A stretch of 64,000 nt of DNA, taken from NCBI GenBank assembly GCA_910577225.1, contig CAJTMV010000004.1:103005-167004 (forward strand), read 5' to 3'. Position numbers and translations under genes: made by a program. Under the pieces are notes generated by a model. It saw only the letters and a program-made list of their open reading frames with translations, did no database searches and had not been told where the DNA came from. Below are positions 1,989 through 17,219 of the stretch, piece after piece (the first letter of the stretch is position 1; each line of letters begins with the position of its first letter). The stretch comes from an uncultured Eubacterium sp. (lineage in GTDB: Bacteria > Bacillota > Clostridia > Lachnospirales > Lachnospiraceae).

Positions 1989-2013
1989 TTATAAATATAT
2001 AAGGAGTGAAGGA

Positions 2014-2739
2014 ATGTTTTATATAGCAGTATGTGATGATGAGGAATATTTTCGCACAAGAGAAGAACAACTGATCATCAAATATATGGAAGCCAAAGGC
2101 TATCATTATAAAATAGAAATTTTTGATTTGGGAAGTGAGTTGTTGAATTTAGGAAATGCCATATCCAAATTTGATATGATATTTCTTGACATAAATATGG
2201 AAGAAATTGACGGAATAGAAACTGCTAAAAGAATCAGGCGAGTTACGAAAGATACTTATATCGTTTTTGTCACAGCCTTTGTTACATATGCATTGGAAGG
2301 ATATAAGGTAGACGCAGTACGCTATTTGTTGAAAGAAGATGAATATTTAGAGAAAGCTATTTATGAATGTCTAAATACCATTGTATATAAAATGAATTAT
2401 GAGGAATACAAACATACCTTTGAATTTCAAGAAGGTATCGTTGAACTTTATTACGAAGATATTCTGTATGTTGAAAGTAATTTGCATAAATTGATATTTC
2501 ATATGGTAACAAATGATACAGACAGATATACCACATATGAAAAGTTAGATATAATTGATGAATTATTACGGGAGGCTGGCTTTTGCAGAATTCACAAAAG
2601 TTATTTGGTAAATTTAAAGTATGTGGAAAGCATAGAACGATATAAGGTCAGGTTATCCAATGGAGATTGCTTGGGAATATCTAAGTCAAGATATTTAGAT
2701 ACAAGAAATGAGTTTGTTTGTTACAGAGGTGAAATTTAA
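2014..2739 (+). CDS. LytTR-family response regulator (AgrA-like)
   Basis: Receiver domain (IAVCDDEE, FLDINMEEIDG) plus a C-terminal LytTR domain (FCRIHKSYLVNLKYV). The ATG at 2014 is preceded by AAGGAG. The tracked ORF start at 1969 lies inside the IS inverted repeat. Confidence 0.85.
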   Translation: MFYIAVCDDEEYFRTREEQLIIKYMEAKGYHYKIEIFDLGSELLNLGNAISKFDMIFLDINMEEIDGIETAKRIRRVTKDTYIVFVTAFVTYALEGYKVDAVRYLLKEDEYLEKAIYECLNTIVYKMNYEEYKHTFEFQEGIVELYYEDILYVESNLHKLIFHMVTNDTDRYTTYEKLDIIDELLREAGFCRIHKSYLVNLKYVESIERYKVRLSNGDCLGISKSRYLDTRNEFVCYRGEI

Positions 2740-4040
2740 TGGAAACGCAGATATATGGGATTTTTTATGCAATATTGTATGTGGTGTTGTGTAAAATGTT
2801 TGTGGAGACTTTTGAAGAAAAGCGGGATTTCACGAAAAATCTGTACCGATATGGAATGTTTATGTTCCTTACAGTAATGGTTTATATGGTTTCCGTGATG
2901 TTTGCCAACAACTTTGCTTTGAAAGAAATATTTATTATTGCTCTAAGCACAATTTGTATGTGGATGAGTTTTCAGCAAAAAATTGTCAAAGCAGTAATAT
3001 TAGTTTTATTTTATCAGGGAGTAGGTTTGGTTATTGATTACATTTCTGTTATAGTTATGTCTAAATGTTTTCCCGCTATAACAATGGAACGGTTATCTGA
3101 TCCTGCGGTAAATTTAATGTTAGGGACGTTGAGCCAGATTTTTTTATTTTGTTTTATTATGCTCGTAAAAAGATATGTCGTGAGAAAGTCTGCCGAAGTA
3201 TTGACAGCAATGGAGTGGGTGCGGTTTGCTACCTTCCCGGTATTTACGATTATTGTACTGGTTGCGCTTTTGACAGGTTTTCAAATTCCGTTAAATAACA
3301 GTCAGAAAAATATTTTAATCTGTATTGCTTTTGGTCTGCTATTAATGAATATCATTGTTTTTGGTTTAAGTAATGATATATTAAAAAGAGAAATGCTGAT
3401 AAGAGAGAATCGATTATTCCGTGAACGTGTAATAAATGAAACCGGGATGTATAGAACTATCTCGGAAAATTATGATAAGCAGAGAAAAAGAGAACATGAA
3501 TACAAAAATCAAATGGCATTTATTGCTGCGTTAGCCCGTGATAATAAAGTAGAAGAATTGAACCATTATTTAGAAGAGTATAATAAAGAAATATTAGCGA
3601 ACATGGACTTGATTGATACAAATAATGTGATAGTAAATGCAATATTAAATTCAAAATATCAGGAAGCGAGGGAAAAAGGCATTGTATTTGTGGTAAAGGT
3701 CAATGATTTATCCGATTTAAAAATAAAAGATGAAGATATTGTTCTTATACTCTCTAATTTATTGAATAATGCAATAGAGGCAAGCGAAAAATGTAATGAA
3801 GCTGTGGTCAGGTTAAAGTTCGTGAAAGAAAAGAAGCAGATTATCATATCTGTTGTAAATACAATGGCAAATGAGCCGTTAATCAATGGCAATAAATTTG
3901 TAACCAGTAAAACAGAAGATGCAGATATGCATGGGATTGGTATTGAGAATATTAAGGAAGCAGTAGGAAAATATGGTGGTTCCTGTGTGATAAAACATGA
4001 CAGCAAGAGTTTTCGTTTTGCAATTCTTATTCCTGATTAG
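2739..4040 (+). CDS. AgrC-like GHKL sensor histidine kinase (multi-TM N-terminus)
   Basis: The first ~200 aa are hydrophobic with roughly 6 TM segments. An H-box-like REHEYKNQ is followed by an N-box NLLNNAIEA and a G-box HGIGIENI. The TAATG overlap with the RR stop implies translational coupling. Confidence 0.8.
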   Translation: METQIYGIFYAILYVVLCKMFVETFEEKRDFTKNLYRYGMFMFLTVMVYMVSVMFANNFALKEIFIIALSTICMWMSFQQKIVKAVILVLFYQGVGLVIDYISVIVMSKCFPAITMERLSDPAVNLMLGTLSQIFLFCFIMLVKRYVVRKSAEVLTAMEWVRFATFPVFTIIVLVALLTGFQIPLNNSQKNILICIAFGLLLMNIIVFGLSNDILKREMLIRENRLFRERVINETGMYRTISENYDKQRKREHEYKNQMAFIAALARDNKVEELNHYLEEYNKEILANMDLIDTNNVIVNAILNSKYQEAREKGIVFVVKVNDLSDLKIKDEDIVLILSNLLNNAIEASEKCNEAVVRLKFVKEKKQIIISVVNTMANEPLINGNKFVTSKTEDADMHGIGIENIKEAVGKYGGSCVIKHDSKSFRFAILIPD

Positions 4041-4050
4041 AAAAGAAAGT

Positions 4051-4076
4051 AGGTACAGTCTTGTATCTGCTTTTTT
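4051..4076 (+). terminator. Weak intrinsic terminator after the RR-HK pair
   Basis: aggtaca-gtct-tgtatct forms a 7-bp stem with one G-U pair, followed by gcTTTTTT. Confidence 0.35.
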
Positions 4077-4088
4077 ATTAAATTTCCA

Positions 4089-4117
4089 ATTCTGTCAAAA
4101 AATTCCTGATTCTGCAA
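4089..4117 (+). promoter_or_regulatory. Candidate LytTR (AgrA-type) direct-repeat box upstream of agrBD
   Basis: ATTCTGTCA (4089-4097) and ATTCTGCAA (4109-4117) are separated by an 11-nt A/T-rich spacer. A TATAAAAT -10-like element follows at about 4123-4130, about 90 bp upstream of the agrB start. Confidence 0.3.
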
Positions 4118-4213
4118 TAGATATAAAATAAGTTTTTGGTGCGCCGATATGGTAAATAAAAGTATATGGTGTTACTAAGTGGAAATTGATACTTAGGATT
4201 AGGAGGTGGGAGA

Positions 4214-4801
4214 GTGACAGAGCTTATGGCAGATATGATCACAGAGCGTTTATTGATCAATGGGATGATAAGAAGTTGTGACAAAGAAATGTACCATTAT
4301 TCAATCCAAGTCTTAATTGAAAAAATAGTAGGATTTTCAGTCATTTTTATGATTTCAATCAAATGGGGAGCCTTGTTGGAAACAGTTTTATTTGTTTTTT
4401 GTTTCTCTTGTATTAGAGGACATACTGGAGGGTTCCATGCAAAAAGTTTTTCGGGATGTTTTATAGGTACAATAGGAATTTATATTGCATATATAAAATG
4501 TTTTTATCCAATTTTGCTGAGGAATATGGATATTAATATGCTTTTGCTTTTGATAGCTGGAGTTCTTATTTTTATAATAGGCGCTGTAAATCATCCGAAT
4601 ATGGATTGGAGTAAAGATGAGTATAATGTAAGTAAAAAGATTGCAAGAGAGATTGTCATAGTGGAAGTATGTAGTATCACTGCGCTTTATTTGTTGGGAA
4701 TGAAAGAAAGTTATGTTTTATTTATGAGTTTTGGATTGATTTTAAGTGCATTTTTATTAGCACTCGGAAAAATAACAAAACAGGAGGTGAAATGTGAATG
4801 A
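4214..4801 (+). CDS. agrB: AgrB-family autoinducer-peptide processing membrane protease
   Basis: 195 aa polytopic protein with the CIRGHTGGFHA motif typical of AgrB. GTG start after AGGAGGTG. Confidence 0.85.
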   Translation: MTELMADMITERLLINGMIRSCDKEMYHYSIQVLIEKIVGFSVIFMISIKWGALLETVLFVFCFSCIRGHTGGFHAKSFSGCFIGTIGIYIAYIKCFYPILLRNMDINMLLLLIAGVLIFIIGAVNHPNMDWSKDEYNVSKKIAREIVIVEVCSITALYLLGMKESYVLFMSFGLILSAFLLALGKITKQEVKCE

Positions 4802-4962
4802 AGAAAAAAGTGGAAAAAGGTTTGCTGAGCATTGTCGAAAAGGTAGTTAGATTGGAAGTACAAAAGAATGATGGCGGTGATCCGCCAATCTGTCCGTTTA
4901 TTTTACATCAGCCTAAAAGACCGAAGAAACAGGCAGGATTTGGATCAAGCGATGAGCATTAA
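4798..4962 (+). CDS. agrD: AgrD-type cyclic lactone autoinducer peptide precursor (54 aa, absent from the ORF track)
   Basis: My translation: MKKKVEKGLLSIVEKVVRLEVQKNDGGDPPICPFILHQPKRPKKQAGFGSSDEH. It has an amphipathic N-terminus and a Cys followed by 4 residues (CPFIL), then HQPxxP, as in clostridial AgrD (compare C. perfringens CLWFT-HQPEEP). The start overlaps the agrB stop (ATGA). Confidence 0.75.
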   Translation: MKKKVEKGLLSIVEKVVRLEVQKNDGGDPPICPFILHQPKRPKKQAGFGSSDEH

Positions 4963-5019
4963 GTATTATGGCTATGAATGAAATGGATTTCAAATTATTT
5001 TATCAAGGAGGACGAATTT

Positions 5020-5904
5020 ATGGATGTTTCAAATGTAGGAGCAGCAAGAGGTCATCAATATGAACCGAAAACAGCAAGTGCTTTACAGGAAGAGGTCAAA
5101 AACACACCTGATTCGGAAAGAAAGGATTTAGGTGTAATTGTTGAGATTTCAAAAGACTCGCCGGAGGCACAGAGAATATCGGAAACAGTACGTCAAAGAA
5201 TAAAAGGGCAGCAGAGAGGAAAAGGCAACCCTTCAATGCACAGGATCATTAACGGAGACAGCGTGAATGGTATGGTTAGTTTTTATGGTGCAAGCGTGAC
5301 GAAAGAGCAAAGTGAGAAGCTGCAAAGTGTTATTATGGACTTAGAGAAGCAGGGCTTTGTAAAGGCTACGCCTGATGTAAATGGTAGCTATCAGGCAGGT
5401 GATGAGGCATTAGGTTCTACATTGGAGCCGGGAACATACGCACAGCTTGGTCTTAAAGTTTCACAGCTTGCCTATGCTTGCAAAGAAATGGGATTGACTG
5501 ATGAAGTAGCAGAGCGGATAACAAGTGCGTATGGTAAGCAGGCAGAAGAGAAGATCAATAAGGTAAACAGCATGATTGAATTTGCTGCCAAGCAGGTAAA
5601 GATTGAACAGGAGAAGTTATATAGGGAGCATGGAACACCCAATTACAAAAAGGGAGTTTCTAAGGCAAGGAGTACAACAGGAAAAAACAGCGTGGAGGTA
5701 AATAAGGAAACAAACAGTGACATTTATAAGATGTTTGCCAATCTTGATGTAAGCAGTAAAGAAAACTTTAGAAGTAGTTTTGAAAAGGCACTGGCAGGGT
5801 TCAAGGATTATTTTGTTTCTGATCCGATTGAACATTACAATGGAACTGGTCGGGAGCAAAGACAGTTAGATGAACTGTTAAAGCGGTTTAACAATTTTAT
5901 ATAA
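5020..5904 (+). CDS. Hypothetical protein (294 aa, no signal peptide)
   Basis: Long ORF. The ATG at 5020 is preceded by AAGGAGG, and no terminator separates it from agrD. I recognise no motif. Confidence 0.6.
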   Translation: MDVSNVGAARGHQYEPKTASALQEEVKNTPDSERKDLGVIVEISKDSPEAQRISETVRQRIKGQQRGKGNPSMHRIINGDSVNGMVSFYGASVTKEQSEKLQSVIMDLEKQGFVKATPDVNGSYQAGDEALGSTLEPGTYAQLGLKVSQLAYACKEMGLTDEVAERITSAYGKQAEEKINKVNSMIEFAAKQVKIEQEKLYREHGTPNYKKGVSKARSTTGKNSVEVNKETNSDIYKMFANLDVSSKENFRSSFEKALAGFKDYFVSDPIEHYNGTGREQRQLDELLKRFNNFI

Positions 5905-5926
5905 AACATGAGAAAGGGGAATTATT

Positions 5927-7225
5927 ATGAAAGCTACAAAAGTGTTATGTGGAATTTTAACATGTGCAATACTTTTTGGAAATGCAGGTATAGTACACGC
6001 TAAAGAGACTCAAAGTGCAAGGAATATTCCAGCACTGACAGCAGAGATGATGGAGGAGAGTATAAATCTTTCGGCACAGTCAGCAAGAATGTCTGGAAAT
6101 GTGTCCGCAGGATATGTTACCGGCTATTTATCTGATACATCAGATGGGGCTTTATACACCATTACAGTTCCCAATGGTTGTATGATGCAGGCGCAGTTGG
6201 AGCAGCCGGGTAATGCAGCAATAGACTATGATTTATATATATTTGACAAAGATGACAATAGTATAGATGCCTCTGAGAATGTGACTAATGTTGTGAACGG
6301 TAAAACATTGGTGGAAGATGTTGCAGTTATTAACACAACTGGGACAGAGGCAGAATATAAAATTTTGGTAAATTCATTTGTTGGTGGAAGTGAGACAGAG
6401 GCATATACCCTGACTTATGCATTGACAGATGTTTATGATGATTATGAGACGGATGAACAGCCACGGAGAGCAGGCGAATTTGTATTTTCGAGTGCATCTG
6501 ATTCAATCAGTGACAGAAATATTAGTTCGCCAATAGATAGCGATTGGTATATGTTTACTGTACCGTCCGGCTATGATGAAATGCAGTTAAATATTTCTTC
6601 ATCATCAGCAAATAGCCATGCAGTGTTGGCATATAAGAATATTGCAACAGATGGTACATATCAGATGGCTCCGGTTTCTTTATCCAGCGGAAAGAACGCA
6701 GTAACAGCAGGAGATGTATATTATCTTAAGGTCTGCTATGGTGGAGCCTTGAACGGATTTGCTCAGGACAGTATTGAGAATTATACATTATCTATTAACT
6801 TTTCTGTTAAATCGCTGGAACCGGGATCGATATCCATTACAGGATTTGAGGGTGGTACTTATGTTACATATGGTTATGGCAGGTTATACCGTGTGACAGG
6901 AGGCACATTGACTGTAAAAGGTATAGTTAAAGATACGGAAGGCAAAGATTTAGCCAATGCACCTGTTTTAGTGGCATTTGCAAACCCTGCATGGGAGGGG
7001 GATTCACGCTATGGGCTTGTTCCGGCAGAAGGAGTGACGGATGCATCAGGAAGATTTACTATAACAGTTACGTTACCGCCTAAAGCTGGATTAGAATGTT
7101 ATTATGTCAATCCTTCAACGCATTACTACGATACTTGTACCGTAATAGCAACTCCGGGCAATGATTTGTATGCTACCGATTTTGTTTATCAATATGCTTA
7201 TTCTGCATATGGAGATAACACATAA
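5927..7225 (+). CDS. Secreted protein with two pre-peptidase C-terminal (PPC)-like domains and a carboxypeptidase-regulatory-like domain
   Basis: Signal peptide MKATKVLCGILTCAILFGNAGIVHA. PPC-like strings AIDYDLYIFDKDDN and DSDWYMFTVPSG. C-terminal GIVKDTEGKDLANAPV...TDASGRFTITV. No catalytic domain is visible. Confidence 0.6.
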   Translation: MKATKVLCGILTCAILFGNAGIVHAKETQSARNIPALTAEMMEESINLSAQSARMSGNVSAGYVTGYLSDTSDGALYTITVPNGCMMQAQLEQPGNAAIDYDLYIFDKDDNSIDASENVTNVVNGKTLVEDVAVINTTGTEAEYKILVNSFVGGSETEAYTLTYALTDVYDDYETDEQPRRAGEFVFSSASDSISDRNISSPIDSDWYMFTVPSGYDEMQLNISSSSANSHAVLAYKNIATDGTYQMAPVSLSSGKNAVTAGDVYYLKVCYGGALNGFAQDSIENYTLSINFSVKSLEPGSISITGFEGGTYVTYGYGRLYRVTGGTLTVKGIVKDTEGKDLANAPVLVAFANPAWEGDSRYGLVPAEGVTDASGRFTITVTLPPKAGLECYYVNPSTHYYDTCTVIATPGNDLYATDFVYQYAYSAYGDNT

Positions 7226-7348
7226 TTGTTTTTGGGGCTGTGTCAAGAGTGATTTAGCAACACATTTGGCAGGGATTAAGGTGTTTGGATAATCAGCTAT
7301 AAATATTTTGCAGTCACATATGTTAGAGATTTAAGGAGGTATTTGCTC

Positions 7349-7819
7349 ATGAAAAAATTAATTTCTTTTATTACATGTATTGCTATGTGTATGATGCTTG
7401 TTATGCCTGTATCAGCGGCAGAGATAGCACCAAATGATGAAACGGTTACAATGACAGAGGAATCTGTTGCATCGGTATATTCTACGAATTATTTCAGGAA
7501 AATTACACCGAAGTTAAATTCTGTTTATGGTAATCCATCAACAGTTGCAACCCTTTCATCTGGCTCTGTAACTGGAACTAATCCGAGTATTACATCTGTG
7601 ACGGTATATTCACGTGTAAGTACAGGAAGCGATCCATTTTATGTTTTTGTTGAAGATCCTTATGGAAATTGGGATTATGATATAGTGAGTGCAAGCGGCA
7701 CAAGCACTTTTTCGTCTTTTGATGGATATGATCCCTCTGGAAGTTGGAAAGTATGGATTGTGACTATGGGAGATGTTTCAACAGCTACATTAACATTGAC
7801 TGTGAATTATCGTTATTAA
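7349..7819 (+). CDS. Small secreted protein, possibly proprotein-convertase P-domain-like
   Basis: Signal peptide MKKLISFITCIAMCMMLVMPVSA after AAGGAGG. FYVFVEDPYGNW...FDGYDPSGSWKVWIV resembles the P-domain pattern. This is an assignment by eye only. Confidence 0.5.
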   Translation: MKKLISFITCIAMCMMLVMPVSAAEIAPNDETVTMTEESVASVYSTNYFRKITPKLNSVYGNPSTVATLSSGSVTGTNPSITSVTVYSRVSTGSDPFYVFVEDPYGNWDYDIVSASGTSTFSSFDGYDPSGSWKVWIVTMGDVSTATLTLTVNYRY

Positions 7820-7867
7820 TATAAAGGGCAATGTGACTGCAATTTATTTTAAAAAGGAGATTGGTGT

Positions 7868-8413
7868 ATGAATATTAATGGAAATAGTACGAGATGGTTT
7901 TCGCAAAATTCTTTAATGAGCAAATTCTTTTCACAAAAAAAAGTAAACAGAAGTGATATATCAGGTCAAACAACAACCAATGCAAACAGCGGTGTTAAGT
8001 ATAAACATAGTTATTTGTATTACAATGAAGATGGTGTCCCTTGCTTTTCAAAGGAACAGGCTGAAAGATGTCTTAAAGGAAGAACAGATTGCCGCAATAT
8101 CGTATCTGTATCAGAGCAGGTAAAAGCAGATTTAGCGGAGGTAGTTAAACAAGATTTTATTAGTACTAACGGATGGGGAATACCAGAAGGAAGTAAAAGA
8201 CATGATGTGGTTAATAATTATTTGAGTACAATTCCGCCTAAACAGTGTGCCTCTGCATCATGGACATTGATAAAAATGGCAGGAGATTATGCTGAAAGAT
8301 TGCAAGCATTAGTAAGAGAAAATAATCCGGGATGGAAACCGGGTGATGCATTTGATACAAGTATTTTGGATCAGCTTGATGGCACTCTCGGAGGTGTGGA
8401 CTTTAAAGTATAG
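7868..8413 (+). CDS. Hypothetical protein (181 aa)
   Basis: ORF with an AAGGAG RBS. Four Cys residues and no recognised motif. Confidence 0.55.
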   Translation: MNINGNSTRWFSQNSLMSKFFSQKKVNRSDISGQTTTNANSGVKYKHSYLYYNEDGVPCFSKEQAERCLKGRTDCRNIVSVSEQVKADLAEVVKQDFISTNGWGIPEGSKRHDVVNNYLSTIPPKQCASASWTLIKMAGDYAERLQALVRENNPGWKPGDAFDTSILDQLDGTLGGVDFKV

Positions 8414-8440
8414 ATATTATAAGTCAAGGAGGATGATAAT

Positions 8441-9205
8441 ATGGCAATGGAAATTATGAACAGTTACGGCAGTTATGCTACGCAATATATGGCGGATAAT
8501 AGCACAGCGAATGGCATAAAGAAAAAGGATACGGAACAGAAAACGGAAACAGCGAATAGCAGCAAGTCAAAAAGTACAGCAGATTATATGAATGAACTGG
8601 CAAAGCTTGTTCCAAGCGTTGAGTGTAAGATTGGAAATACATTTTCATCAGCAAAAAGTGGTAAAACTTTGACAATCAATCCATTACTTTTGGATAAGAT
8701 GCAGAAAGATCCAGAGAAAGAAAAAGAAATGAAAGAACTGATTAGAGGTGTTGAATCAGCTGTGAATATGTTGGACAGTGTAATGAATGCCAGTGGATGG
8801 AGTGTTGTATTTAAGCATGATTATATAGACGAAAACGGAAAATATCGTCAAATTGCACTTGTCAGAAATGATTTTATGCTAAACATGAGCGACAAGCTCC
8901 GGGAAGAAAGACGGAAGAATTCTGAAAAGTTGATTGAAAAGACAAAGGAAAAGGCGGCAGAAAAGAAAAAAGAATTACAAGATGTTTTAGAAGAAAAGTT
9001 GACTATAAAGGAAGATGAAAAAACAACTCCAGACAAGGTAGAGCAGTTTTTGGATGAAAAGATTACTGACTCAAAAGATAACACAGTTTTACTGAACGAA
9101 GAAGATATTAAGACAATTGTTGAAATTGCAAAGGATAATAATGTGGAACAGACCAATGTAAAGAATCACATGCAAGTTGGTTCTAATCTGGATTTGAAAA
9201 TATAG
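8441..9205 (+). CDS. Hypothetical protein (254 aa) with a K/E-rich C-terminal half
   Basis: ORF with an AAGGAGG RBS and a charged coiled-coil-like tail. No recognised motif. Confidence 0.55.
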   Translation: MAMEIMNSYGSYATQYMADNSTANGIKKKDTEQKTETANSSKSKSTADYMNELAKLVPSVECKIGNTFSSAKSGKTLTINPLLLDKMQKDPEKEKEMKELIRGVESAVNMLDSVMNASGWSVVFKHDYIDENGKYRQIALVRNDFMLNMSDKLREERRKNSEKLIEKTKEKAAEKKKELQDVLEEKLTIKEDEKTTPDKVEQFLDEKITDSKDNTVLLNEEDIKTIVEIAKDNNVEQTNVKNHMQVGSNLDLKI

Positions 9206-9343
9206 TCTATTATATTGAGGAGAATAGTTTTATTTACCAAAAAGCATGATGTTGAAATCGCTTAATGAAACTATAAGGTTTTCTTGCAGTATAAACTAAT
9301 AAGAAAATTTCTTATAGAATGAACTATGAAGGAGGTGAAACGA

Positions 9344-9526
9344 ATGAAAAGATTAGGTAAAAAAGTTGTAGCACATGAGAATACTTTATCTGCATTTTGT
9401 GTTTCATGCTACTGTCTTCCGATTACTTGTAAATGCAGCAGCACAAGCCATGATCCGACAGGAACTACATTTCAGTCTACTCAGACTTCGCAGATAAAAA
9501 GCCCATCTGTACCGTTCTTATTGTAG
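9344..9526 (+). CDS. Cys-rich RiPP precursor peptide (60 aa)
   Basis: MKRLGKKVVAHENTLSAFCVSCYCLPITCKCSSTSHDPTGTTFQSTQTSQIKSPSVPFLL. AAGGAGGTG lies 7 nt upstream of this ATG. The gene sits immediately upstream of the rSAM/SPASM maturase. The alternative start is 9326. Confidence 0.65.
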   Translation: MKRLGKKVVAHENTLSAFCVSCYCLPITCKCSSTSHDPTGTTFQSTQTSQIKSPSVPFLL

Positions 9527-9603
9527 TCATGCTGCGATGTAGTCATGCTGCGATGTAGTCATGCTGCGATGTAGTCATGCCGTGATGTAATCAGGTTATG
9601 ATG
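9524..9603 (+). repeat. 16-bp tandem repeat: 3 identical copies, 1 near-identical, 1 degenerate
   Basis: TAGTCATGCTGCGATG occurs three times (9524-9571), followed by TAGTCATGCCGTGATG and then TAATCAGGTTATGATG. The first TAG is the precursor stop codon. Confidence 0.9.
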
Positions 9604-9615
9604 TGTGGAAATGGG

Positions 9616-9653
9616 GTTAGACTGCTAATATATATGCAGTCTAACTTCTTTTC
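9616..9653 (+). terminator. Intrinsic terminator or attenuator between the precursor and the maturase gene
   Basis: Perfect 10-bp stem gttagactgc / gcagtctaac with a 10-nt A/T loop, followed by TTCTTTTC. Confidence 0.7.
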
Positions 9654-9667
9654 AAATGGAGGTTAAA

Positions 9668-11101
9668 ATGAAAATTAAAAAACCATTTATATTTGTTTTC
9701 AAATTATATATCAGATTTTATTTGTATGATGTGAATACGAGAATGATAGTTGGTATAAGTAAGGAGTTATATGAATTGTTAAAAAATTTGGACGAGGAAG
9801 ATTATATACAGATCCCAAATAATTTAGAGAATGAGGTAAATAAGCTTCTAAAATATGATATTTTTAGCGAAACAATTTATGATTATGAGATAAAGTATCA
9901 TCAAAATGAATATATAGAGGATATACTTAAAAATAGTATGAAAACAGTCACTTTGCAAGTTACTCAAAATTGTAACTTACGTTGCAAGTATTGTGTCTAT
10001 TCTGGAAGTTACGAAAACAGAGTACATAGTAATAAAAGGATGAGTTTTGAAACAGCTCAAAAGGCGATTGACTTTTTACATAAACATAGTAGTCTATCTG
10101 CTGCTATTAGTGTGGGGTTTTATGGCGGTGAACCACTTCTTGAAATGGAACTTATAAAAAAATGTGTGGATTATGCCAAGAAAATATTTGATGGTAAGGA
10201 TTTAAGTTTTACTATAACGACTAATGCTACGTTATTGACAGAAGAAGTGATGGATTTTTTTGTGGAAAATGATTTTTATGTAACGATAAGTTTTGATGGT
10301 CCACAAAAAATACAGGATAAAAACAGGGTTATGGCAGATGGAAAACAAGGATCGTTTGATGTTGTCATGAAGAATGTTGAACATTTTCTAAAAAAATATC
10401 CTGAATATACAGAACATATTAGTTTTAATGCCGTCTTAGATCCTACAAATGATTTTAATTGCTCAAATGAATTTTTTATGAATTACGAATCCCTTAAAAA
10501 GAATAATGCTAGAGGGGTATTAATTAGCACAGAGGGATTAAAAAATGATTTGAAACAGGATGAATCTTTTAAGATAGCATATAGCTATGAAATGTTTAAA
10601 AATTTTCTATGGAGCTGCGGAAAATTGGATAATGTAGGTAGTAAACTGACAATAGCTTATATTGAGCAGGTAGAGCAAATGGTAGGAAAAAGAACAATAG
10701 GATTGGAAAAAAATAAAAAATATTCACATCCGGGAGGACCTTGCTTAATTGGGGTACATAAGTTTTTTGTTAATGCAGATGGTTATTTCTATCCTTGTGA
10801 GAGGGTTGATGAGAGTATAGAATGTACCAGAATAGGAAATTTAGATGATGGTCTGGATATTGAAAAGATTAAAATGTTGTTGAATATTGGTAAATTAACA
10901 GAAGATGAATGTAAAAAATGTTGGGCATTCCAATTTTGTACACAGTGCCTACGCTCGGCTGTTGATGGGGATTATTTGTCAAAGAGTAAGAGATTAAGTA
11001 AATGCAACGGTTCAAGATATACAGCAGAGCAGTCATTAAAGGATTATATTGCATTAAAAGAGTGTGGTTCAACATTTGGAAAAAGGATAAAGGGGGAGTA
11101 A
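9668..11101 (+). CDS. Radical SAM / SPASM-domain peptide maturase (CcpM-like, as I recall that family)
   Basis: CNLRCKYC (CX3CX2C) at about residue 105 follows an N-terminal extension. The C-terminal SPASM Cys pattern is GGPCLIG...YPCERV...CKKCWAFQFCTQC...CNG. The ATG at 9668 follows GGAGG. The alternative start is 9656. Confidence 0.85.
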   Translation: MKIKKPFIFVFKLYIRFYLYDVNTRMIVGISKELYELLKNLDEEDYIQIPNNLENEVNKLLKYDIFSETIYDYEIKYHQNEYIEDILKNSMKTVTLQVTQNCNLRCKYCVYSGSYENRVHSNKRMSFETAQKAIDFLHKHSSLSAAISVGFYGGEPLLEMELIKKCVDYAKKIFDGKDLSFTITTNATLLTEEVMDFFVENDFYVTISFDGPQKIQDKNRVMADGKQGSFDVVMKNVEHFLKKYPEYTEHISFNAVLDPTNDFNCSNEFFMNYESLKKNNARGVLISTEGLKNDLKQDESFKIAYSYEMFKNFLWSCGKLDNVGSKLTIAYIEQVEQMVGKRTIGLEKNKKYSHPGGPCLIGVHKFFVNADGYFYPCERVDESIECTRIGNLDDGLDIEKIKMLLNIGKLTEDECKKCWAFQFCTQCLRSAVDGDYLSKSKRLSKCNGSRYTAEQSLKDYIALKECGSTFGKRIKGE

Positions 11102-11105
11102 ATTC

Positions 11106-12161
11106 ATGAGAAATGAAAAGATAGCTGTATTTCCAGTTGATGAGGACTTTCTTTCTCTTCCGGATAATCAGAATATTGAACTGGGAAAAGATTGTTATAA
11201 AATTTCATATTACATAACCTTAGCAGGGTGGAATGTTGATGGTGTGGAAAAACAATTACATGCCTTAAATGAATTTGAGTTTAAAAATATTGATACGCTT
11301 GTATTGATTAACTCGTTTAGAAAACTGGAAAATGATGTGATTCAAAGAATTGTCAATGTGGCTGCACAAAATGAGATAAAAATCGTCTGTGCAAGAGATG
11401 ATTTGGATGTTAATTATGAGGTGTTAAAAAAAGCGTGCAAAGAAGAAACTGTAGAACTTGAAATTGTTTGTGATGAAACAGCTTTCGTTGATAGTAAGGT
11501 AATAAACAATATAGATATTCCTATTATTACAATTTCCGGTATAGGTCCATATGTAGGGAAATTTCAGGTGGGGTTATATCTAAGAAGCTCGTTTGAAAAT
11601 GCAGGGTATAAAGTATTATATATAAGTTCACGTAGAGAGGGGAAATTATTTGGTACTCATATTTTCCCGGAATATATGTATAGTAAAAATTTGGATTATA
11701 CAGCAAAAGTATTTGAGTTTAATAGCTATATAAGTAGTCTAATTAGAAAAGAAAAACCTGATATTGTCATAGTAGGCGTTCCAGGCGAGATGATGGAATT
11801 AAGTGAAAAACATAAAATGAATTTTGGAATAATGGCAAGTGCGGTTTTTAACGCTATAAAGCCAGATGTATCTATATTAAATATGTATAACATGCAGTAT
11901 ACGGATGAGTTTTTGGAAGAGCAGAAAAAATATTGTAAATATCGTTTTGGTGTGATTCCTGATTTATTTTATGCTACTTATACGGGAGTTATTGATTCAT
12001 CACTGCAGGAAGCATGGATACAATACTTTCATGTAGACAAGCTGTTTGATGATTTATTGGAAAAAAATAAGATATTTGGGGAATCAGATATTAAGAGTGG
12101 TTTGCTATTTAAACAGATCATGGATATATTGGAAGAATACGGTTCATTAGATGTTATGTGA
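11106..12161 (+). CDS. Peptide-maturation-system protein of unknown function (351 aa)
   Basis: Starts 4 nt after the rSAM stop, with an RBS of GGGGGAG. I see no catalytic motif. From memory it resembles the TIGR04066-type partner of Cys-rich peptide rSAM systems. This is unverified. Confidence 0.6.
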   Translation: MRNEKIAVFPVDEDFLSLPDNQNIELGKDCYKISYYITLAGWNVDGVEKQLHALNEFEFKNIDTLVLINSFRKLENDVIQRIVNVAAQNEIKIVCARDDLDVNYEVLKKACKEETVELEIVCDETAFVDSKVINNIDIPIITISGIGPYVGKFQVGLYLRSSFENAGYKVLYISSRREGKLFGTHIFPEYMYSKNLDYTAKVFEFNSYISSLIRKEKPDIVIVGVPGEMMELSEKHKMNFGIMASAVFNAIKPDVSILNMYNMQYTDEFLEEQKKYCKYRFGVIPDLFYATYTGVIDSSLQEAWIQYFHVDKLFDDLLEKNKIFGESDIKSGLLFKQIMDILEEYGSLDVM

Positions 12162-12168
12162 GGTGCGT

Positions 12169-12447
12169 ATGGAAGATAATAGAGACAGCATTAAAAAGAG
12201 ATTAGATAATGTGTTTATAGAAAAAATGGCTTTTGCGGTTTACAAACTATCAGATGAACAACGTTCAAAGAGCTTGTTAAGGGACTGTATAGGTATGCAG
12301 GCAAGAGATTTGCTGAAACTTTATATGGAATTAGAAAACGAATTTCATATTGATTTTAATACACTTGTATTAGACGGAAACTTTGATAAATATGATTGTC
12401 TATTAGAATATATTGTAAGTAATATCGGAGAAAAGAATGTCAATTAA
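12169..12447 (+). CDS. Acyl-carrier-protein-related small protein lacking the phosphopantetheine serine
   Basis: IGMQARDLLKLYMELENEFHIDF aligns by eye to the ACP pattern [23 protein letters not shown], with the DSL serine replaced by Ala. The alternative start is 12151. Confidence 0.55.
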   Translation: MEDNRDSIKKRLDNVFIEKMAFAVYKLSDEQRSKSLLRDCIGMQARDLLKLYMELENEFHIDFNTLVLDGNFDKYDCLLEYIVSNIGEKNVN

Positions 12448-13834
12448 AAAGATTCATGTTTGCATCATTGATGACGGAGTATGCGAGGATGAAATCTGCA
12501 CATTTAAGAACGTGCAAATCGGTAATGATAAAGTTATCAATACTTTCAATGTATGTAAGAAAAACTCTCACGGTACAGGATGTGCTAAAGTAATAGCCAA
12601 ACATGCAGAAAAAGATATTTTGATAAGCAGCGTGTCAATTCTTAACAGGCAGTGCAAGGGGAATGTTCAATCTTTATGCACTGCTTTCGAGTGGTGCATA
12701 GAAAATGATGTTGATATTATAAATTTGAGTTTAGGGAGTGTTTTTTTTAAAGATAAGGAACTTTTATTGAATGCCGTTAATCATTGTGCAGAAAATGGAA
12801 TTGTTATTATAGGTGCAACCTCTAATGACGGATATGTAACCTATCCTGCAAGTTTTACGAATGTATTATGTGTTAGATCCTTTGAGAAAAAAGGAGTAAA
12901 GGGATGTGTCGCAAGGTATGATACCAATTTAGGTTTCGGATTGTTTGAAACTCAGGGTAGTGAAAAAATCTACATAAACGGTATAGAAAAAACAACAAGT
13001 TGGTGTAATAGTGTAGCTGCTCCACAAATCACAGCAAAAATAATTAATGTGTATGAGAAAGGAATTAGTCCAATAGCAATTAGAAATATGTTTGGAAACG
13101 AGTTGCTGAAAATTAATTGCTTTGGAATTGATTGGGTGTCAAAGGCATATGTACAGAATATAAGTGAATTGATTCCTGAATGGTGTGTGTGCAAGATAAT
13201 TAATAAAGAAGTGGAAATGCCACTGGACATTGCGGATACTGTCATTACGCAAAAAGCAGATGATATAAAAAGGTGGTTAGAAGCTGGTAAAAATATCATA
13301 TATATTGGCGATGATGTGATTGATTATGCAAGCAGTGATAGCTATGTTTGGTCAAAATACAACAGGATACAACAGATACATTATAACCAGATAGCCCAAC
13401 AAGGTATATCAGGGGTTCCGGTAATTTTTATAAAGGGGGTATGTGCATTAAAGTACATCTATGGACTTGAAAAGATGTTTAAGGAAAAGGATTACCATGC
13501 ATATAGTATTTCTCATAGCATTTTATATGAGTTATATGGAATAACATATATACCTACGGAAATCCCGGATGTAGATGAAATTAGCAATTTTATCAGGAAT
13601 GAGCTGCATTATAAACTGGGGGATATATTATTGTATGATATTAGTGGAATTGATGAAAAATCAGCAGCGAAAAATGTTAAACTATCACCAGACATTATCC
13701 TAGACACAGCGGAAAAGAATGTGACCATATCAAGTGAATATGGGAGTAGGACTGTTGCGGATTCCATAGAAAGCGTTGGGAACTATATAATAGAATTGTT
13801 AGAAGAGGAAGGCAGAGAGAATGATGAGCAATAA
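12437..13834 (+). CDS. Subtilisin-like (S8) peptidase fused to a ~210-aa C-terminal domain of unknown function
   Basis: Catalytic-triad contexts CIIDDGV (Asp), HGTGCAKVIA (His) and NSVAAPQITA (Ser), plus NLSLGS. No signal peptide. The start overlaps the preceding gene. Confidence 0.7.
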   Translation: MSIKKIHVCIIDDGVCEDEICTFKNVQIGNDKVINTFNVCKKNSHGTGCAKVIAKHAEKDILISSVSILNRQCKGNVQSLCTAFEWCIENDVDIINLSLGSVFFKDKELLLNAVNHCAENGIVIIGATSNDGYVTYPASFTNVLCVRSFEKKGVKGCVARYDTNLGFGLFETQGSEKIYINGIEKTTSWCNSVAAPQITAKIINVYEKGISPIAIRNMFGNELLKINCFGIDWVSKAYVQNISELIPEWCVCKIINKEVEMPLDIADTVITQKADDIKRWLEAGKNIIYIGDDVIDYASSDSYVWSKYNRIQQIHYNQIAQQGISGVPVIFIKGVCALKYIYGLEKMFKEKDYHAYSISHSILYELYGITYIPTEIPDVDEISNFIRNELHYKLGDILLYDISGIDEKSAAKNVKLSPDIILDTAEKNVTISSEYGSRTVADSIESVGNYIIELLEEEGRENDEQ

Positions 13835-15470
13835 AGAGGCAGTAAGAAGATTAATAGTGCTTATCAGTAATTACAAGAAAACAATTGCTGTAATTATGAT
13901 CTGTCTGGTCGTATCTACTGGACTAAATCTATGCGTACCATTACTGAGCAGCAGAATTATGGATGATGGGTTTATTGGTGGGAATAAAACATTACTTATT
14001 CAATTGGTGTTATGTTCTTTTGCAGTATATATGATATGCTCCGCTATTAACCTATTAAAAGAAAAAATGAGAATTGATATTTCGGCAAAAATACAGTATT
14101 TGTTATCTGAACGCTCTTTTTCTCATTTGATGAAAATGAATGTTAGCTTTTTTAGTAACAAGAATTATGCTGAAATATTTGATAACATAAATGTGGATAT
14201 TGGCAACATGACTTCTATTGCCGATGAAAGCGTATTTTTTGTGTTTACACAAGCATTTAGTATGACTGGAGGGATAATTGGCTTATTTATCCTGGATTAT
14301 CGCATGACAATATTAGTCCTGCTGTTTATACCAATAAAATGTGTGATAATGAGATATTTTGCAAAAAAGCGGAAACAACTTATAGATAGGTTTATATATG
14401 AAAATCAAAAGTATGCAGGCTGGTTTGGAGATACAGTTGGAGGTATACGGGAAGTTAAACTGTTTGGCATTTTTGAGAATAAATATAAAGAATTTTCTGA
14501 TAAACAGATGCGAGTGATCAATAGTCAGAAAAAAGTACATATACTTAGCCAATGGAACAGTACGACAGATACCATATTGGTTAGAATTTTAACAACTTTA
14601 ATATATGTAGTAGGTGCTGATATGGTATTTAATATGCAGCTCTCGGTGGGGAATGTATTTGCCTTTATTACATACAGTGCATATGTTACAGGACCGATTT
14701 CGGCAATATTAAATATTGGCTATCTTTTATCAGGGATAATTCCCTCTACGAAGCGGTATTATGAGTTTATGGATCTGGAAGAGGAAAATACTAATGCGGA
14801 TGCTGTTGTTCTGCCGCAGTATGGGGATGTTGAGTTGCAAAATATTTCATTTTCTTATGATAAAGAGAAATTGGTTTTAAAAAATATTAGCCTGCTTATT
14901 CCACGGGGGAGTAAGGTAGCATTTATAGGGAAAAATGGTTCTGGTAAAAGTACCATTATTGATTTACTTCTGCGTATGTATGAGCCAACAGAAGGTAAAA
15001 TATTATTGTCTGGCAGTAATATAGCAGATATGGAATTGGGAAAATACCGTAATATAATTTCTGTTGTGAGTCAGGATATATATATGTTCAATGATACTAT
15101 TCGCAATAATATTTGTCTTTACAGACAAGTAGAGGATAAAAAAGTTCTTGATATATGCGAAGATAGCGGGCTGACGGATTTTATAGCAGAGGTATCATTG
15201 GATTATCAGGTGGGACAGAATGGAGCAATGCTTTCTGGCGGACAAAAGCAAAAGATAGCACTTGCAAGGGCATTATTACATGATCGTCCTATAGTGATTT
15301 TTGATGAGGCGACTTCCAGTACGGATGAGTATTCTGAACAGCAGATTAATTCATTGCTACATACAAGGTTAATTGACAAAACTGTAATTGTGGTTACGCA
15401 TAGAACAAATATTTTAAATGAAATGGATCAGATTGTTGAGTTAGATGATGGAAGAGCATGTAAAAAGTGA
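13821..15470 (+). CDS. ABC exporter, fused permease and ATPase, without a C39 peptidase domain
   Basis: The N-terminal half has 6 TM segments. Walker A GKNGSGKST, signature LSGGQKQKIALARAL, Walker B VIFDEATS. Confidence 0.85.
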   Translation: MMSNKEAVRRLIVLISNYKKTIAVIMICLVVSTGLNLCVPLLSSRIMDDGFIGGNKTLLIQLVLCSFAVYMICSAINLLKEKMRIDISAKIQYLLSERSFSHLMKMNVSFFSNKNYAEIFDNINVDIGNMTSIADESVFFVFTQAFSMTGGIIGLFILDYRMTILVLLFIPIKCVIMRYFAKKRKQLIDRFIYENQKYAGWFGDTVGGIREVKLFGIFENKYKEFSDKQMRVINSQKKVHILSQWNSTTDTILVRILTTLIYVVGADMVFNMQLSVGNVFAFITYSAYVTGPISAILNIGYLLSGIIPSTKRYYEFMDLEEENTNADAVVLPQYGDVELQNISFSYDKEKLVLKNISLLIPRGSKVAFIGKNGSGKSTIIDLLLRMYEPTEGKILLSGSNIADMELGKYRNIISVVSQDIYMFNDTIRNNICLYRQVEDKKVLDICEDSGLTDFIAEVSLDYQVGQNGAMLSGGQKQKIALARALLHDRPIVIFDEATSSTDEYSEQQINSLLHTRLIDKTVIVVTHRTNILNEMDQIVELDDGRACKK

Positions 15471-15517
15471 TAACAATTTTCATGATCGGAGTGTAATAAA
15501 ATAGGAGGAATTTTTGT

Positions 15518-15583
15518 ATGAAAAAAGTATTATCTATTGTTTTGTGTATGAGTTTATGTATAATGTGTACTTTGCCGATATAA
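15518..15583 (+). pseudogene. Truncated signal-peptide or lipoprotein-like ORF cut by the IS3 insertion
   Basis: AGGAGG RBS followed by MKKVLSIVLCMSLCIMCTLPI and a stop. The TAA stop abuts the approximate IS3 left end at 15584. Confidence 0.4.
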
Positions 15584-15774
15584 TGTACCCATAACCGTGG
15601 ACAATCTAATTAGTGTAGTCCCCTCATCTTAGACATATCGTCAAGTCGGTTCCGACAGATTGGACAGTCACACTAATTGGTTCCCGATCCCTTGGACATT
15701 AGCATGAATCCTCCCTTTCAAATCGGACAGTCTCTTGCTCTGGCATGGTATAATAGATACAGAAGGAGGATGCC

Positions 15775-16203
15775 ATGAGCAGAAGACAGTTTACCGAAGA
15801 GCAGCAACGAAAGCTGCGCCAGAATCCATATGTTTATAGTGTCACGGCCACGCGCCTTTCCCTTACAAGGGAGTTCAAGGAACTATTCATGGAAGCCTGC
15901 AGGGCTGGTGGAGCGCCCAGAAAAATCCTCGAAGACCACGGATTCAGCGTTGAATTGATCGGCGAGAGACGTTTCTTTAGCATCCCGCAGCACATACGCG
16001 AGGAATTCAAAAAGCATGGGGAATTCCGCGAGGGCTACAGCAGCCGCAGCAACGGGGAGAATGTCCTGGAAGTACAAGGCCATCCATCCGGCGATGACGA
16101 ACTGAAGCAGCTCCGGCATGAAGTCGATTACCTGAAGCAGGAAATGGAGTTCCTAAAAAAAATTTCCTCAATCAGGAATACAGGAAGGCAGGTGCACTGT
16201 TGA
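15775..16203 (+). CDS. IS3-family transposase OrfA (HTH and leucine-zipper part)
   Basis: 142 aa ending in LKQLRHEVDYLKQEMEFLKKI, as is typical of IS3 OrfA. Confidence 0.8.
   Translation: MSRRQFTEEQQRKLRQNPYVYSVTATRLSLTREFKELFMEACRAGGAPRKILEDHGFSVELIGERRFFSIPQHIREEFKKHGEFREGYSSRSNGENVLEVQGHPSGDDELKQLRHEVDYLKQEMEFLKKISSIRNTGRQVHC
16155..16162 (+). other. Programmed -1 ribosomal frameshift slippery run (A8) joining OrfA to OrfB
   Basis: CTA AAA AAA ATT in the orfA frame. The -1 frame is open from 16155 into orfB (KKNFLNQEYRKAGALLMNES). Confidence 0.6.
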
Positions 16204-17219
16204 TGAATGAATCCTCTTGTGCCTATGAAATCATCCAGGAAACCCTGCAGGCCACAGGCAACTCGCTGTCCGTCAGCTCCTTATGCTCCATGGCCGGCGT
16301 ATCCCGGAGCGGATACTACGCCTGGCTCAAGGCTGCACCCATCAGGGAAGCGCAGGAGCAGAGGGACCGTGAGGATTTTGACCTGGTACTGGAAGCCTGC
16401 CGCATGCGTGGCTATTCCAAAGGGGCAAAAGGCATATATATGGCCCTCCTCCATATGGAGCCCCCGGTCATCATGAACCTCAAAAAAATACGGAGGCTCA
16501 TGGACAAATACAGCCTGTCATGCCCTGTGCGCAAGGCAAACCCCTACCGGAGGATGGCCAGGGCCCTGAGAACCAGCAGCGTGGCGGACAACCTGCTGCG
16601 GCGCGAGTTTGAATGCTACGGCCCGCGGATGGTTCTGCTGACGGACATCACGTACCTTCCATACAATGGGACGTTCGCCTACCTGTCGACCATACTGGAC
16701 GCATTCACGAAGCAGATCCTGTCGTATGCCCTCAGCCCGTCATTGGAAGTGGACTTCGTCCTGGAAACAGTAGAGCTGCTTATTAAAAGGCATGGCATCT
16801 CGCTCCATGCCGAGACGGTCATCCACAGCGACCAGGGATGCCATTATACAAGCCACAAGTTTATCAATATCGTGCAGGACAAAGGGCTCAGGCAGTCCAT
16901 GTCACGCAAAGGCAACTGCTGGGACAACGCGCCGCAGGAAATCTTCTTCGGCCACATGAAAGACCACATAAAAGACAGGATCGCGGCCTGTCCCTGCTAT
17001 GGAGATGTCAGGGCGGTTGTGGACGATTACATGGACTATTACAATAATCAGCGTTACCAGTGGCGCCTGGCAAAACTCTCGCCAAATGAATACTATCAGT
17101 TCGTCACGAGTGGGACCTACCCACTGGATATCCCAAACACACCGGCGCCACCAGCATATGAGAAGCAGCCGGAAGAGCTGGGCATTCACGCAGCCGAAAA
17201 GAAAACCGAAAACAATTAA
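16200..17219 (+). CDS. IS3-family transposase OrfB (DDE integrase core)
   Basis: LTDITY..., HSDQGCHYTS and CWDNAPQEIFFGHMK blocks form an rve-type DDE pattern. Confidence 0.85.
   Translation: MMNESSCAYEIIQETLQATGNSLSVSSLCSMAGVSRSGYYAWLKAAPIREAQEQRDREDFDLVLEACRMRGYSKGAKGIYMALLHMEPPVIMNLKKIRRLMDKYSLSCPVRKANPYRRMARALRTSSVADNLLRREFECYGPRMVLLTDITYLPYNGTFAYLSTILDAFTKQILSYALSPSLEVDFVLETVELLIKRHGISLHAETVIHSDQGCHYTSHKFINIVQDKGLRQSMSRKGNCWDNAPQEIFFGHMKDHIKDRIAACPCYGDVRAVVDDYMDYYNNQRYQWRLAKLSPNEYYQFVTSGTYPLDIPNTPAPPAYEKQPEELGIHAAEKKTENN

Follow-up and report, generated by a model that had tools for sequence, protein, structure and literature searches.

Which peptide, if any, is made by a run of six genes in which a short cysteine-rich reading frame is followed by a radical S-adenosylmethionine (rSAM) enzyme, three partner proteins and an exporter? 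The question is raised by a locus at positions 9344-15470 of the window, by which we mean the whole 64,000-nucleotide stretch analysed here, positions 103,005 to 167,004 of contig CAJTMV010000004.1 from an uncultured Eubacterium sp. of the Lachnospiraceae. An initial annotation made from the letters alone had noted a likeness to the CcpM-type system for Cys-rich peptides. Our analysis indicates that the locus is a complete, apparently functional operon of the CcpM/CLI_3235 type for a ribosomally synthesized and post-translationally modified peptide (RiPP), lying on a low-G+C island flanked by insertion sequences (IS), probably in the genome of a mouse-gut member of the Lachnospiraceae; by analogy with characterised systems, its product would most likely be a quorum-regulated, thioether-cross-linked bacteriocin-like peptide.

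Assignment of the cluster to the CcpM family

All six open reading frames (ORFs) described in the initial annotation were located between 9344 and 15470 on the plus strand, intact and full length. The tight coupling attributed to them holds for the five enzyme genes, whose junctions measure +4, -11, -11 and -14 nt, and does not extend to the precursor gene (9344-9526), which stands 129-141 nt before the rSAM gene. The ORF of the latter opens at 9656, and since a GGAGG lies at 9659-9663, translation probably starts at 9668, giving a protein of 477 residues (9668-11101). Numbered from that start, the CX3CX2C cysteines (C102, C106 and C109) and seven C-terminal cysteines (359, 377, 415, 418, 424, 427 and 446) are invariant in 15 diverse homologues, in agreement with the radical SAM motif and seven-Cys SPASM domain read at the outset. 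The protein matched PF04055 and Fer4_12 in Pfam and scored 531.6 bits against TIGR04068, the CcpM equivalog model with a cut-off of 500, the next-best model being at 241.7 bits.

The top NCBIfam neighbours of CcpM include the Cys-thioether maturases RumMC, PapB, QhpD and SCIFF, all scoring far below their cut-offs (205 bits for a cut-off of 720, 197 for 340, 171 for 453 and 137 for 425, respectively); the enzyme is thus a member of neither the PapB nor the SCIFF-maturase equivalog. The closest solved structure, CteB, matched residues 80-243 only, at 102 bits. Because this match is partial and the models of characterised maturases are so far from their cut-offs, the enzyme is no close homologue of a maturase with a solved product, a possibility that the initial annotation had allowed for. 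We decided against classing the cluster with the sactipeptides, defined by bridges from Cys sulfur to alpha-carbons, or with the ranthipeptides, whose thioethers reach beta- or gamma-carbons, every such maturase model being far below its cut-off. The first 100 residues of CcpM gave no PqqD or RiPP recognition element (RRE) match in Pfam, and we treat leader recognition by an RRE-like domain as an assumption.

In the hidden Markov model search against TIGRFAM/NCBIfam that had been suggested with the initial annotation, three of the four family-specific models were matched above their curated cut-offs, namely TIGR04068, TIGR04066 (212.7 bits for a cut-off of 200, by the 351-residue protein encoded 4 nt downstream of ccpM) and TIGR04065, the CLI_3235 precursor family (28.3 bits for a cut-off of 26, over precursor residues 1-32). 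The margin of the last is small, and three of four divergent family precursors tested likewise barely exceed this cut-off. The fourth model, TIGR04069, was matched below its cut-off of 70 by the protein resembling acyl carrier proteins (ACPs) (38.1 bits, E = 1.6e-9). The CcpM label of the initial annotation is thereby borne out, and we have very little doubt that the cluster belongs to this family.

The gene order is that of the CcpM/CLI_3235 system on plasmid pCLOPA01 of Clostridium pasteurianum BC1, for which RefSeq gives the CLI_3235 precursor followed by ccpM, TIGR04066, a hypothetical protein of small size and an S8 peptidase; a five-gene version of the system has been described in Roseburia intestinalis L1-82 (PMC4573289). 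Where the CcpM/CLI_3235 system has an ABC transporter nearby, the window has its exporter inside the operon, and the window is further set apart by a precursor tail extending beyond the 34-position TIGR04065 model, by the low TIGR04069 score of its ACP-like protein and by its agr-linked island. We found no paper with the structure of a CcpM-family product, as the initial annotation had stated. Its parallel statement that no function is known does not stand, for the SacP23 cluster of Paenibacillus polymyxa #23, comprising a 61-aa CLI_3235-family precursor, TIGR04068, TIGR04066, TIGR04069, an S8 protease and an ABC transporter, yielded in B. subtilis a heat-stable, protease-sensitive 3.4-kDa peptide active against Gram-positive bacteria (PMC10731318). 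The N-terminus of that peptide was refractory to Edman degradation, its producer was protected from it, and the study left its cross-links unsolved (PMC10731318). SacP23 is the only CcpM member with a demonstrated bioactive product and has the same components as the window; its eight-gene cluster includes an extracytoplasmic function (ECF) sigma factor and an 'unc-89-like' gene with no agr module reported, whereas the window has an agr module. The TIGR04066 proteins of other Paenibacillus are ~27% identical to that of the window.

The precursor peptide and its family

The 60-aa precursor, MKRLGKKVVAHENTLSAF-CVSCYCLPITCKC-SSTSHDPTGTTFQSTQTSQIKSPSVPFLL, is preceded by a ribosome-binding site (AAGGAGGTG, 9329-9337) 6 nt upstream of its start, and divides into a leader (residues 1-18, MKRLGKKVVAHENTLSAF), a block of residues 19-31 (CVSCYCLPITCKC) that holds the five Cys in 13 residues noted earlier, and a Cys-free tail rich in Ser, Thr and Gln (residues 32-60). 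Relative to the copy in L001, a related locus whose rSAM protein is 95% identical, the gene has six synonymous and no non-synonymous differences, and relative to the 62%-identical copy in locus L002 the ratio of non-synonymous to synonymous substitution rates (dN/dS) comes to 0.20 for the whole gene and to 0.37 when only the tail is considered. These substitution patterns argue that the small ORF is a real gene under purifying selection, tail included. Among the fetched loci with enough upstream DNA, a CcpM-like rSAM gene stands directly upstream of TIGR04066 in 43 of 46 copies, and this adjacency together with the selection on the peptide indicates that the gene arrangement is not a product of chance.

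A search of protein collections with the 60-aa precursor returned only three close relatives, and family precursors were extracted from the fetched loci instead, giving 21 distinct sequences from 53 loci and a 22nd from pCLOPA01 (20 were aligned, and the layout table covers 21). Three parts are common to all of them: a leader of 17-20 residues with the consensus MK[KR]LGKK...[ST][LVMF]xA[YF]; a block with three to eight Cys spaced as CxC and CxxC, which is the sole strongly conserved feature of the core in the alignment; and a tail without Cys, 14-46 residues long, in which Ser, Thr, Asn, Gly and Gln abound. The number of Cys rises with the length of the tail (Spearman 0.81, p 1e-5, 21 precursors, in a statistic that ignores phylogeny), which fits an arrangement with one bridge from each Cys to a tail residue, as in hairpin sactipeptides. 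Within the subfamily of the window precursor TCxCxSxSxDPTG is invariant, and DPTG is a plausible candidate for the turn of such a hairpin.

Subtilisin-like peptidases favour an aromatic P1 residue, and because the conserved aromatic at the end of the leader fits this preference, the leader is probably cut after Phe18. In L053, a Paenibacillus homologue of the SacP23 locus, the precursor core has 42 residues and a mass of 4471 Da; with this sequence as a stand-in, the 3.4 kDa reported for SacP23 would fit the loss of about ten C-terminal residues, a comparison that is indicative only.

Several other loci deserve mention for their precursors. In L053 itself (Paenibacillus sp. FSL R10-2782) the recorded gene call at 4825-5010 is an overlapping ORF in another frame, and the CLI_3235-type 61-aa precursor was missed; the Roseburia report likewise mentions 'no structural gene' (PMC4573289). 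Precursors of this type can thus be under-called. L010 (5950-6129 and 7322-7501), L013-L016, L018, L020 and L025 have either a pair of precursors or a tandem of two rSAM-TIGR04066 pairs whose precursors differ in type, L013 for example carrying one 49-aa precursor with four Cys and one of 59 aa with five. In L003, from a Defluviitaleaceae metagenome-assembled genome (MAG), three precursor genes (311-538, 2485-2706 and 5810-6046) encode seven to eight Cys each. L004 (4730-8801), from an Ignavibacteria MAG and reached via a distant, 31%-identical rSAM match, has nine tandem genes for precursors of ~56 aa (MFTEITGNTDLY...C.C..YC...C...C...) and two rSAM genes; because TIGR04066 is missing, we set it apart as a different, multi-precursor Cys-rich RiPP system.

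The spacer between the precursor and ccpM

The spacer begins with a tandem repeat and ends with a hairpin. The repeat, a 16-bp unit TGTAGTCATGCTGCGA present in 4.5 copies at 9522-9593 (Tandem Repeats Finder score 123), starts exactly at the precursor stop codon. The same array has only about two copies in L001, so that its copy number is variable. The 141-nt spacer folds with a z-score of -4.6 and holds a strong stem-loop with a U-rich tail at 9606-9654, and an equivalent hairpin of different sequence stands directly before the ribosome-binding site of the rSAM gene in six other loci (z -4.2 to -6.2). A hairpin after the precursor gene is the usual means of raising precursor mRNA over enzyme mRNA, and this one is probably a partial terminator or an mRNA-stabilising element. 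It escaped a simple terminator scan, its loop being longer than 8 nt. The sigma-70 promoter scan performed no better than on shuffled sequences, and neither Rfam nor tRNA scans gave a hit anywhere in the window.

Partner proteins of the maturase

The 351-aa 'peptide maturation system protein' (11106-12161), in which the initial annotation saw no recognisable catalytic motif, proves to be a TIGR04066 member for which a fold can be predicted. An AlphaFold2 model built on 23 homologues (pLDDT, the predicted local distance difference test, 76; pTM, the predicted template modelling score, 0.79) gave seven top Foldseek matches in the PDB that were all DUF1611 structures (2obn, 7xrj and 2g0t; E 3e-7 to 7e-5), with probability 1.00 over 306-375 aligned columns, that is, the whole length, at ~13% identity and a template modelling (TM) score of ~0.5. 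The protein is accordingly modelled as a two-domain DUF1611/DgcN-like fold; DgcN (7xrj) is a D-glutamate N-acetyltransferase, to which TIGR04066 is likened by predicted fold only. No Pfam family was matched even at E <= 10, PF07755 and PF17396 included; its profile found nothing among PDB sequences, and a match to an ecdysone-receptor PDB sequence was dismissed as chance. At the level of sequence the link to DUF1611 is only indirect, through hhalign matches to S8 fusions, some of which carry PF07755. The family, of which a profile search finds 1849 clusters at the 50% identity level, has retained a GxxxxxGK loop (GIGPYVGKF), matching in position the GTSSKQGKF of S8-DUF1611 fusion proteins, together with invariant polar residues including S70, R97, K201, N206, E228, H236 and D254, and because of these features TIGR04066 looks more like an enzyme or a specific binder than a passive scaffold.

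The S8 peptidase fusion (12437-13834) consists of a peptidase of residues 1 to ~235 (PF00082), with the catalytic triad D12/H45/S192 and N130 invariant in 40 sequences, and an extra domain at ~235-465. Because the catalytic Asp already stands at residue 12, the protein would have neither signal peptide nor pro-domain and is predicted to be cytoplasmic, as had been proposed along with its being a fusion. Its best NCBIfam match was QhpE (NF049966), at 82.3 bits for a cut-off of 165 and over residues 8-149 only, which falls short of membership. The extra domain was placed by profile-profile comparison: hhalign aligned TIGR04066 residues 56-231 with S8 residues 260-408 (probability 97.5%, E 5.8e-12), from which the C-terminal domain, ~260-410 and beyond, is judged homologous to TIGR04066. 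This homology is visible by such comparison only, BLASTP between the two proteins having found nothing. The glycine-lysine loop is deleted in the S8 copy, whereas S8 relatives at a greater distance have the complete Pfam DUF1611_C domain, GTSSKQGKF occupying the corresponding position. Foldseek with the whole model of the fusion (pLDDT 88.8) returned subtilisins only and is for that reason uninformative on the C-terminal domain.

Between these two genes lies that of the 98-aa ACP-like protein (12151-12447, true start possibly 12169), whose PDB matches are weak and confined to ACPs. In the alignment GMQARD pairs with GLDSLD, so that Ala takes the position of the phosphopantetheine Ser of the DSL motif, as the initial annotation had it when it described the protein as lacking the carrier serine. 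In most related loci TIGR04066 is likewise followed by a small ORF of this kind, with Ala or Pro at this site and, in a few, Ser. The last gene encodes a 549-aa ABC half-transporter (13821-15470; PF00664 at residues 23-292, PF00005 at 353-499) that is 91-93% identical in L001 and L002. Since its transmembrane domain starts at residue 23 and bacteriocin ABC models that include a peptidase align with it from profile position ~140 onwards, the exporter would indeed be without a C39 domain.

The adjacency of ccpM and TIGR04066 in 43 of 46 copies, the paralogy of the S8 domain, and a CcpM-TIGR04066 fusion together suggest to us that CcpM works in a complex with TIGR04066, the S8 peptidase and perhaps the ACP-like protein. 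The fusion is an in-frame 835-aa protein at 3096-5603 of L003 in which both models score above cut-off; it could be an assembly or frameshift artefact, though both halves pass their family cut-offs. Another irregular locus is L012, where at 4586-7032 the contig folds back inside the TIGR04066 gene into an inverted copy of the upstream genes, probably an assembly chimera.

The island and its agr-type module

The operon occupies the end of a ~14-kb island, which has 32-38% G+C (at ~2000-16000) compared with 41-51% elsewhere in the window and has a DDE transposase gene (480-1916, minus strand) at one border and an IS3 element (15775-17219) at the other. Every gene in 1969-15470 is on the plus strand. 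At the other end of the island, an agr-type module (1969-4962) encodes a LytTR response regulator (1969-2739; PF04397 and PF00072), a GHKL histidine kinase (2739-4040; PF14501, HATPase_c_5), AgrB (4214-4801; PF04647) and a 54-aa AgrD (4798-4962; ...DPPICPFILHQPKRPKK..., predicted ring CPFIL; TIGR04223 at 28.4 bits for a cut-off of 19). With AgrB, AgrD, a membrane kinase and a LytTR regulator all present, the module is complete as judged from its predicted proteins. The agr genes and a DUF6033 gene stand beside the RiPP operon in L002, L008/L009, L010 and L011 as well, and L022 has the agr genes only. This conserved neighbourhood makes control of the operon by agr plausible. Upstream of agrB, an imperfect direct repeat, TTCCAATTCTGTC / TTCCTGATTCTGC (4084-4115, the two starts 19 bp apart), could serve as a LytTR operator. 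The precursor gene is preceded by a repeat of another sequence, ATAAGGTTTTCTT / ATAAGAAAATTTCTTATAG (9273-9317), which L011, L002 and L008 conserve in part.

Five co-directional genes, some with Pfam hits, fill the space between the agr module and the precursor (4978-9205). They encode a protein of 308 aa, a secreted one with a PPC domain (5927-7225), one of 158 aa whose hydrophobic N-terminus is possibly a signal peptide, and members of DUF3879 (7868-8413) and DUF6033 (8441-9205). In 13 related loci the DUF6033 gene directly precedes the precursor. None of the five products resembles a classical immunity protein. Beyond the exporter gene, a 21-codon ORF at 15518-15583 (MKKVLSIVLCMSLCIMCTLPI) is a remnant of a paralogue of the 158-aa protein. 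Megablast of the island against plasmids gave no match.

A proposed pathway and its alternatives

We propose the following course of events, towards which, taken as a whole from precursor to quorum-linked antibacterial product, we lean with some reserve. The conserved hairpin that follows the precursor gene would allow precursor mRNA to be made in excess over enzyme mRNA. CcpM would recognise the conserved 18-residue leader and, by 5'-deoxyadenosyl radical chemistry with its SPASM auxiliary clusters, would join each of the five Cys to a carbon, as its sacti- and ranthi-synthase relatives do. The partners of the Cys would most likely lie in the Cys-free tail, giving a cross-braced hairpin that perhaps turns at the invariant DPTG. 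TIGR04066 and the serine-less ACP-like protein would work with CcpM, probably as a complex docking the S8 peptidase via its TIGR04066-like domain; the cytoplasmic peptidase would then remove the leader, probably after Phe18, and the C39-less ABC transporter would export the product. Expression of the operon would probably be tied to the neighbouring agr-type module, and the product, by analogy with SacP23, would most likely be antibacterial.

The same three-step logic operates in the Qhp pathway, where the rSAM enzyme QhpD makes Cys thioethers, the cytoplasmic S8 peptidase QhpE, the best match of the window's S8 domain, cuts the leader, and the C39-less ABC transporter QhpF exports. The Qhp substrate is an enzyme subunit, whereas that of the window is a free peptide, and QhpE, with 219 profile positions, has no DUF1611-like C-terminal domain, unlike the fusion described here. 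The RumMC, PapB and CteB/SCIFF systems share with the window an rSAM enzyme with SPASM domain and a Cys-rich substrate with an N-terminal leader, and, unlike it, they have no TIGR04066, ACP-like or S8-fusion partners.

Several observations weigh against the proposed pathway, and we need to pay attention to them. For the family as a whole, both the thioether chemistry and the hairpin topology are argued by analogy; the correlation of Cys number with tail length leaves phylogeny out of account, and the tails have about twice the length of the Cys blocks. The model of TIGR04066 is weak at residues 231-238, 262-285 and 296-320 (pLDDT <50), its TM score to DUF1611 structures is modest with no Pfam DUF1611 match by sequence, and the ACP-like protein stays below the TIGR04069 cut-off. 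As to regulation, we found no operator motif common to the regions upstream of agrB and of the precursor, and of the long loci at a greater distance roughly half are without agr matches at the sensitivity of tblastn. No immunity gene is recognisable in 1969-15470 with NCBIfam and Pfam. Finally, the island is cut short soon after the ABC gene, on the side of the IS3 element: homology to L001 ends at 15550, within the signal peptide encoded by a downstream gene, and the IS3 element then follows.

This last observation might be taken to mean that the window copy is a decaying remnant on a mobile island that makes no product. The DDE transposase gene and IS3 element at its borders, the break in L001 homology and the repeat array expanded just after the precursor would all be in keeping with decay. 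The six ORFs are nonetheless full length with catalytic residues intact, the window proteins are 87-95% identical to their L001 counterparts with zero frameshifts, the precursor differs from that of L001 by synonymous changes only, and the hairpin and ribosome-binding sites are intact; we regard decay as the least likely of the alternatives, and a very unlikely one. The chemistry of CcpM might also be something other than a Cys-to-carbon thioether, such as a carbon-carbon or ether link, epimerisation or Cys oxidation, with the Cys serving as disulfides or metal ligands. CcpM does score below the cut-off of every characterised thioether synthase model, and the repertoire of SPASM enzymes extends to cyclophane, ether and other links, several families of this sort being among its weaker matches. 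Among the top-scoring neighbour families, however, are RumMC, PapB, QhpD and SCIFF, which form thioethers on Cys-rich substrates, and the Cys pattern is the one feature of the core that is strongly conserved, so that we find a different chemistry improbable.

The mature peptide could instead be a signalling molecule, as the initial annotation had suggested upon seeing no evident immunity gene. None was recognised in 1969-15470 here either, and in clostridia a connection with quorum sensing has been made for ranthipeptides of the SCIFF type. The suggestion is weakened because the agr module already supplies a signal, the island encoding an AgrD autoinducer with AgrB, kinase and LytTR regulator, and because the pairing recurs in related loci. 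LytTR systems classically switch on bacteriocin loci, and the ABC exporter could double as an immunity pump. The only family member tested, moreover, is antibacterial, with a protected producer (PMC10731318). A signalling role for the peptide strikes us as unlikely, and the antibacterial reading is preferred.

A more speculative extension of the proposed pathway concerns TIGR04066. The three partner proteins might make up a single machine around a DUF1611-like module, in which TIGR04066 would be an active DgcN-like enzyme, dependent on acyl-CoA or a nucleotide. It would be held on CcpM, to which it is fused in one lineage, and on the S8 peptidase by way of the degenerate TIGR04066-like domain of the latter, with the ACP-like protein as adaptor, and after leader removal it would modify the new N-terminus of the core or another site, the product being a hairpin with one thioether per Cys into the tail. 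Modification of the N-terminus would account for the Edman-refractory N-terminus of SacP23. We put only slight trust in this combination; if true, it would amount to a class of RiPP tailoring enzyme and a peptide topology not yet described.

Irrespective of the details of the pathway, the copy in the window is an ordinary member of an already recognised, under-studied family, one that standard annotation pipelines would label. The CcpM family is widespread and common in gut Firmicutes. Towards solving the chemistry of its products the analysis offers several handles: a predicted leader cut site; a relation between Cys number and tail length that predicts Cys-to-tail cross-links; an assignment of the TIGR04066 fold; a protein fusion and a domain paralogy as evidence for a complex of rSAM enzyme, TIGR04066 and peptidase; and a likely agr-type induction signal that may be used to switch the cluster on.

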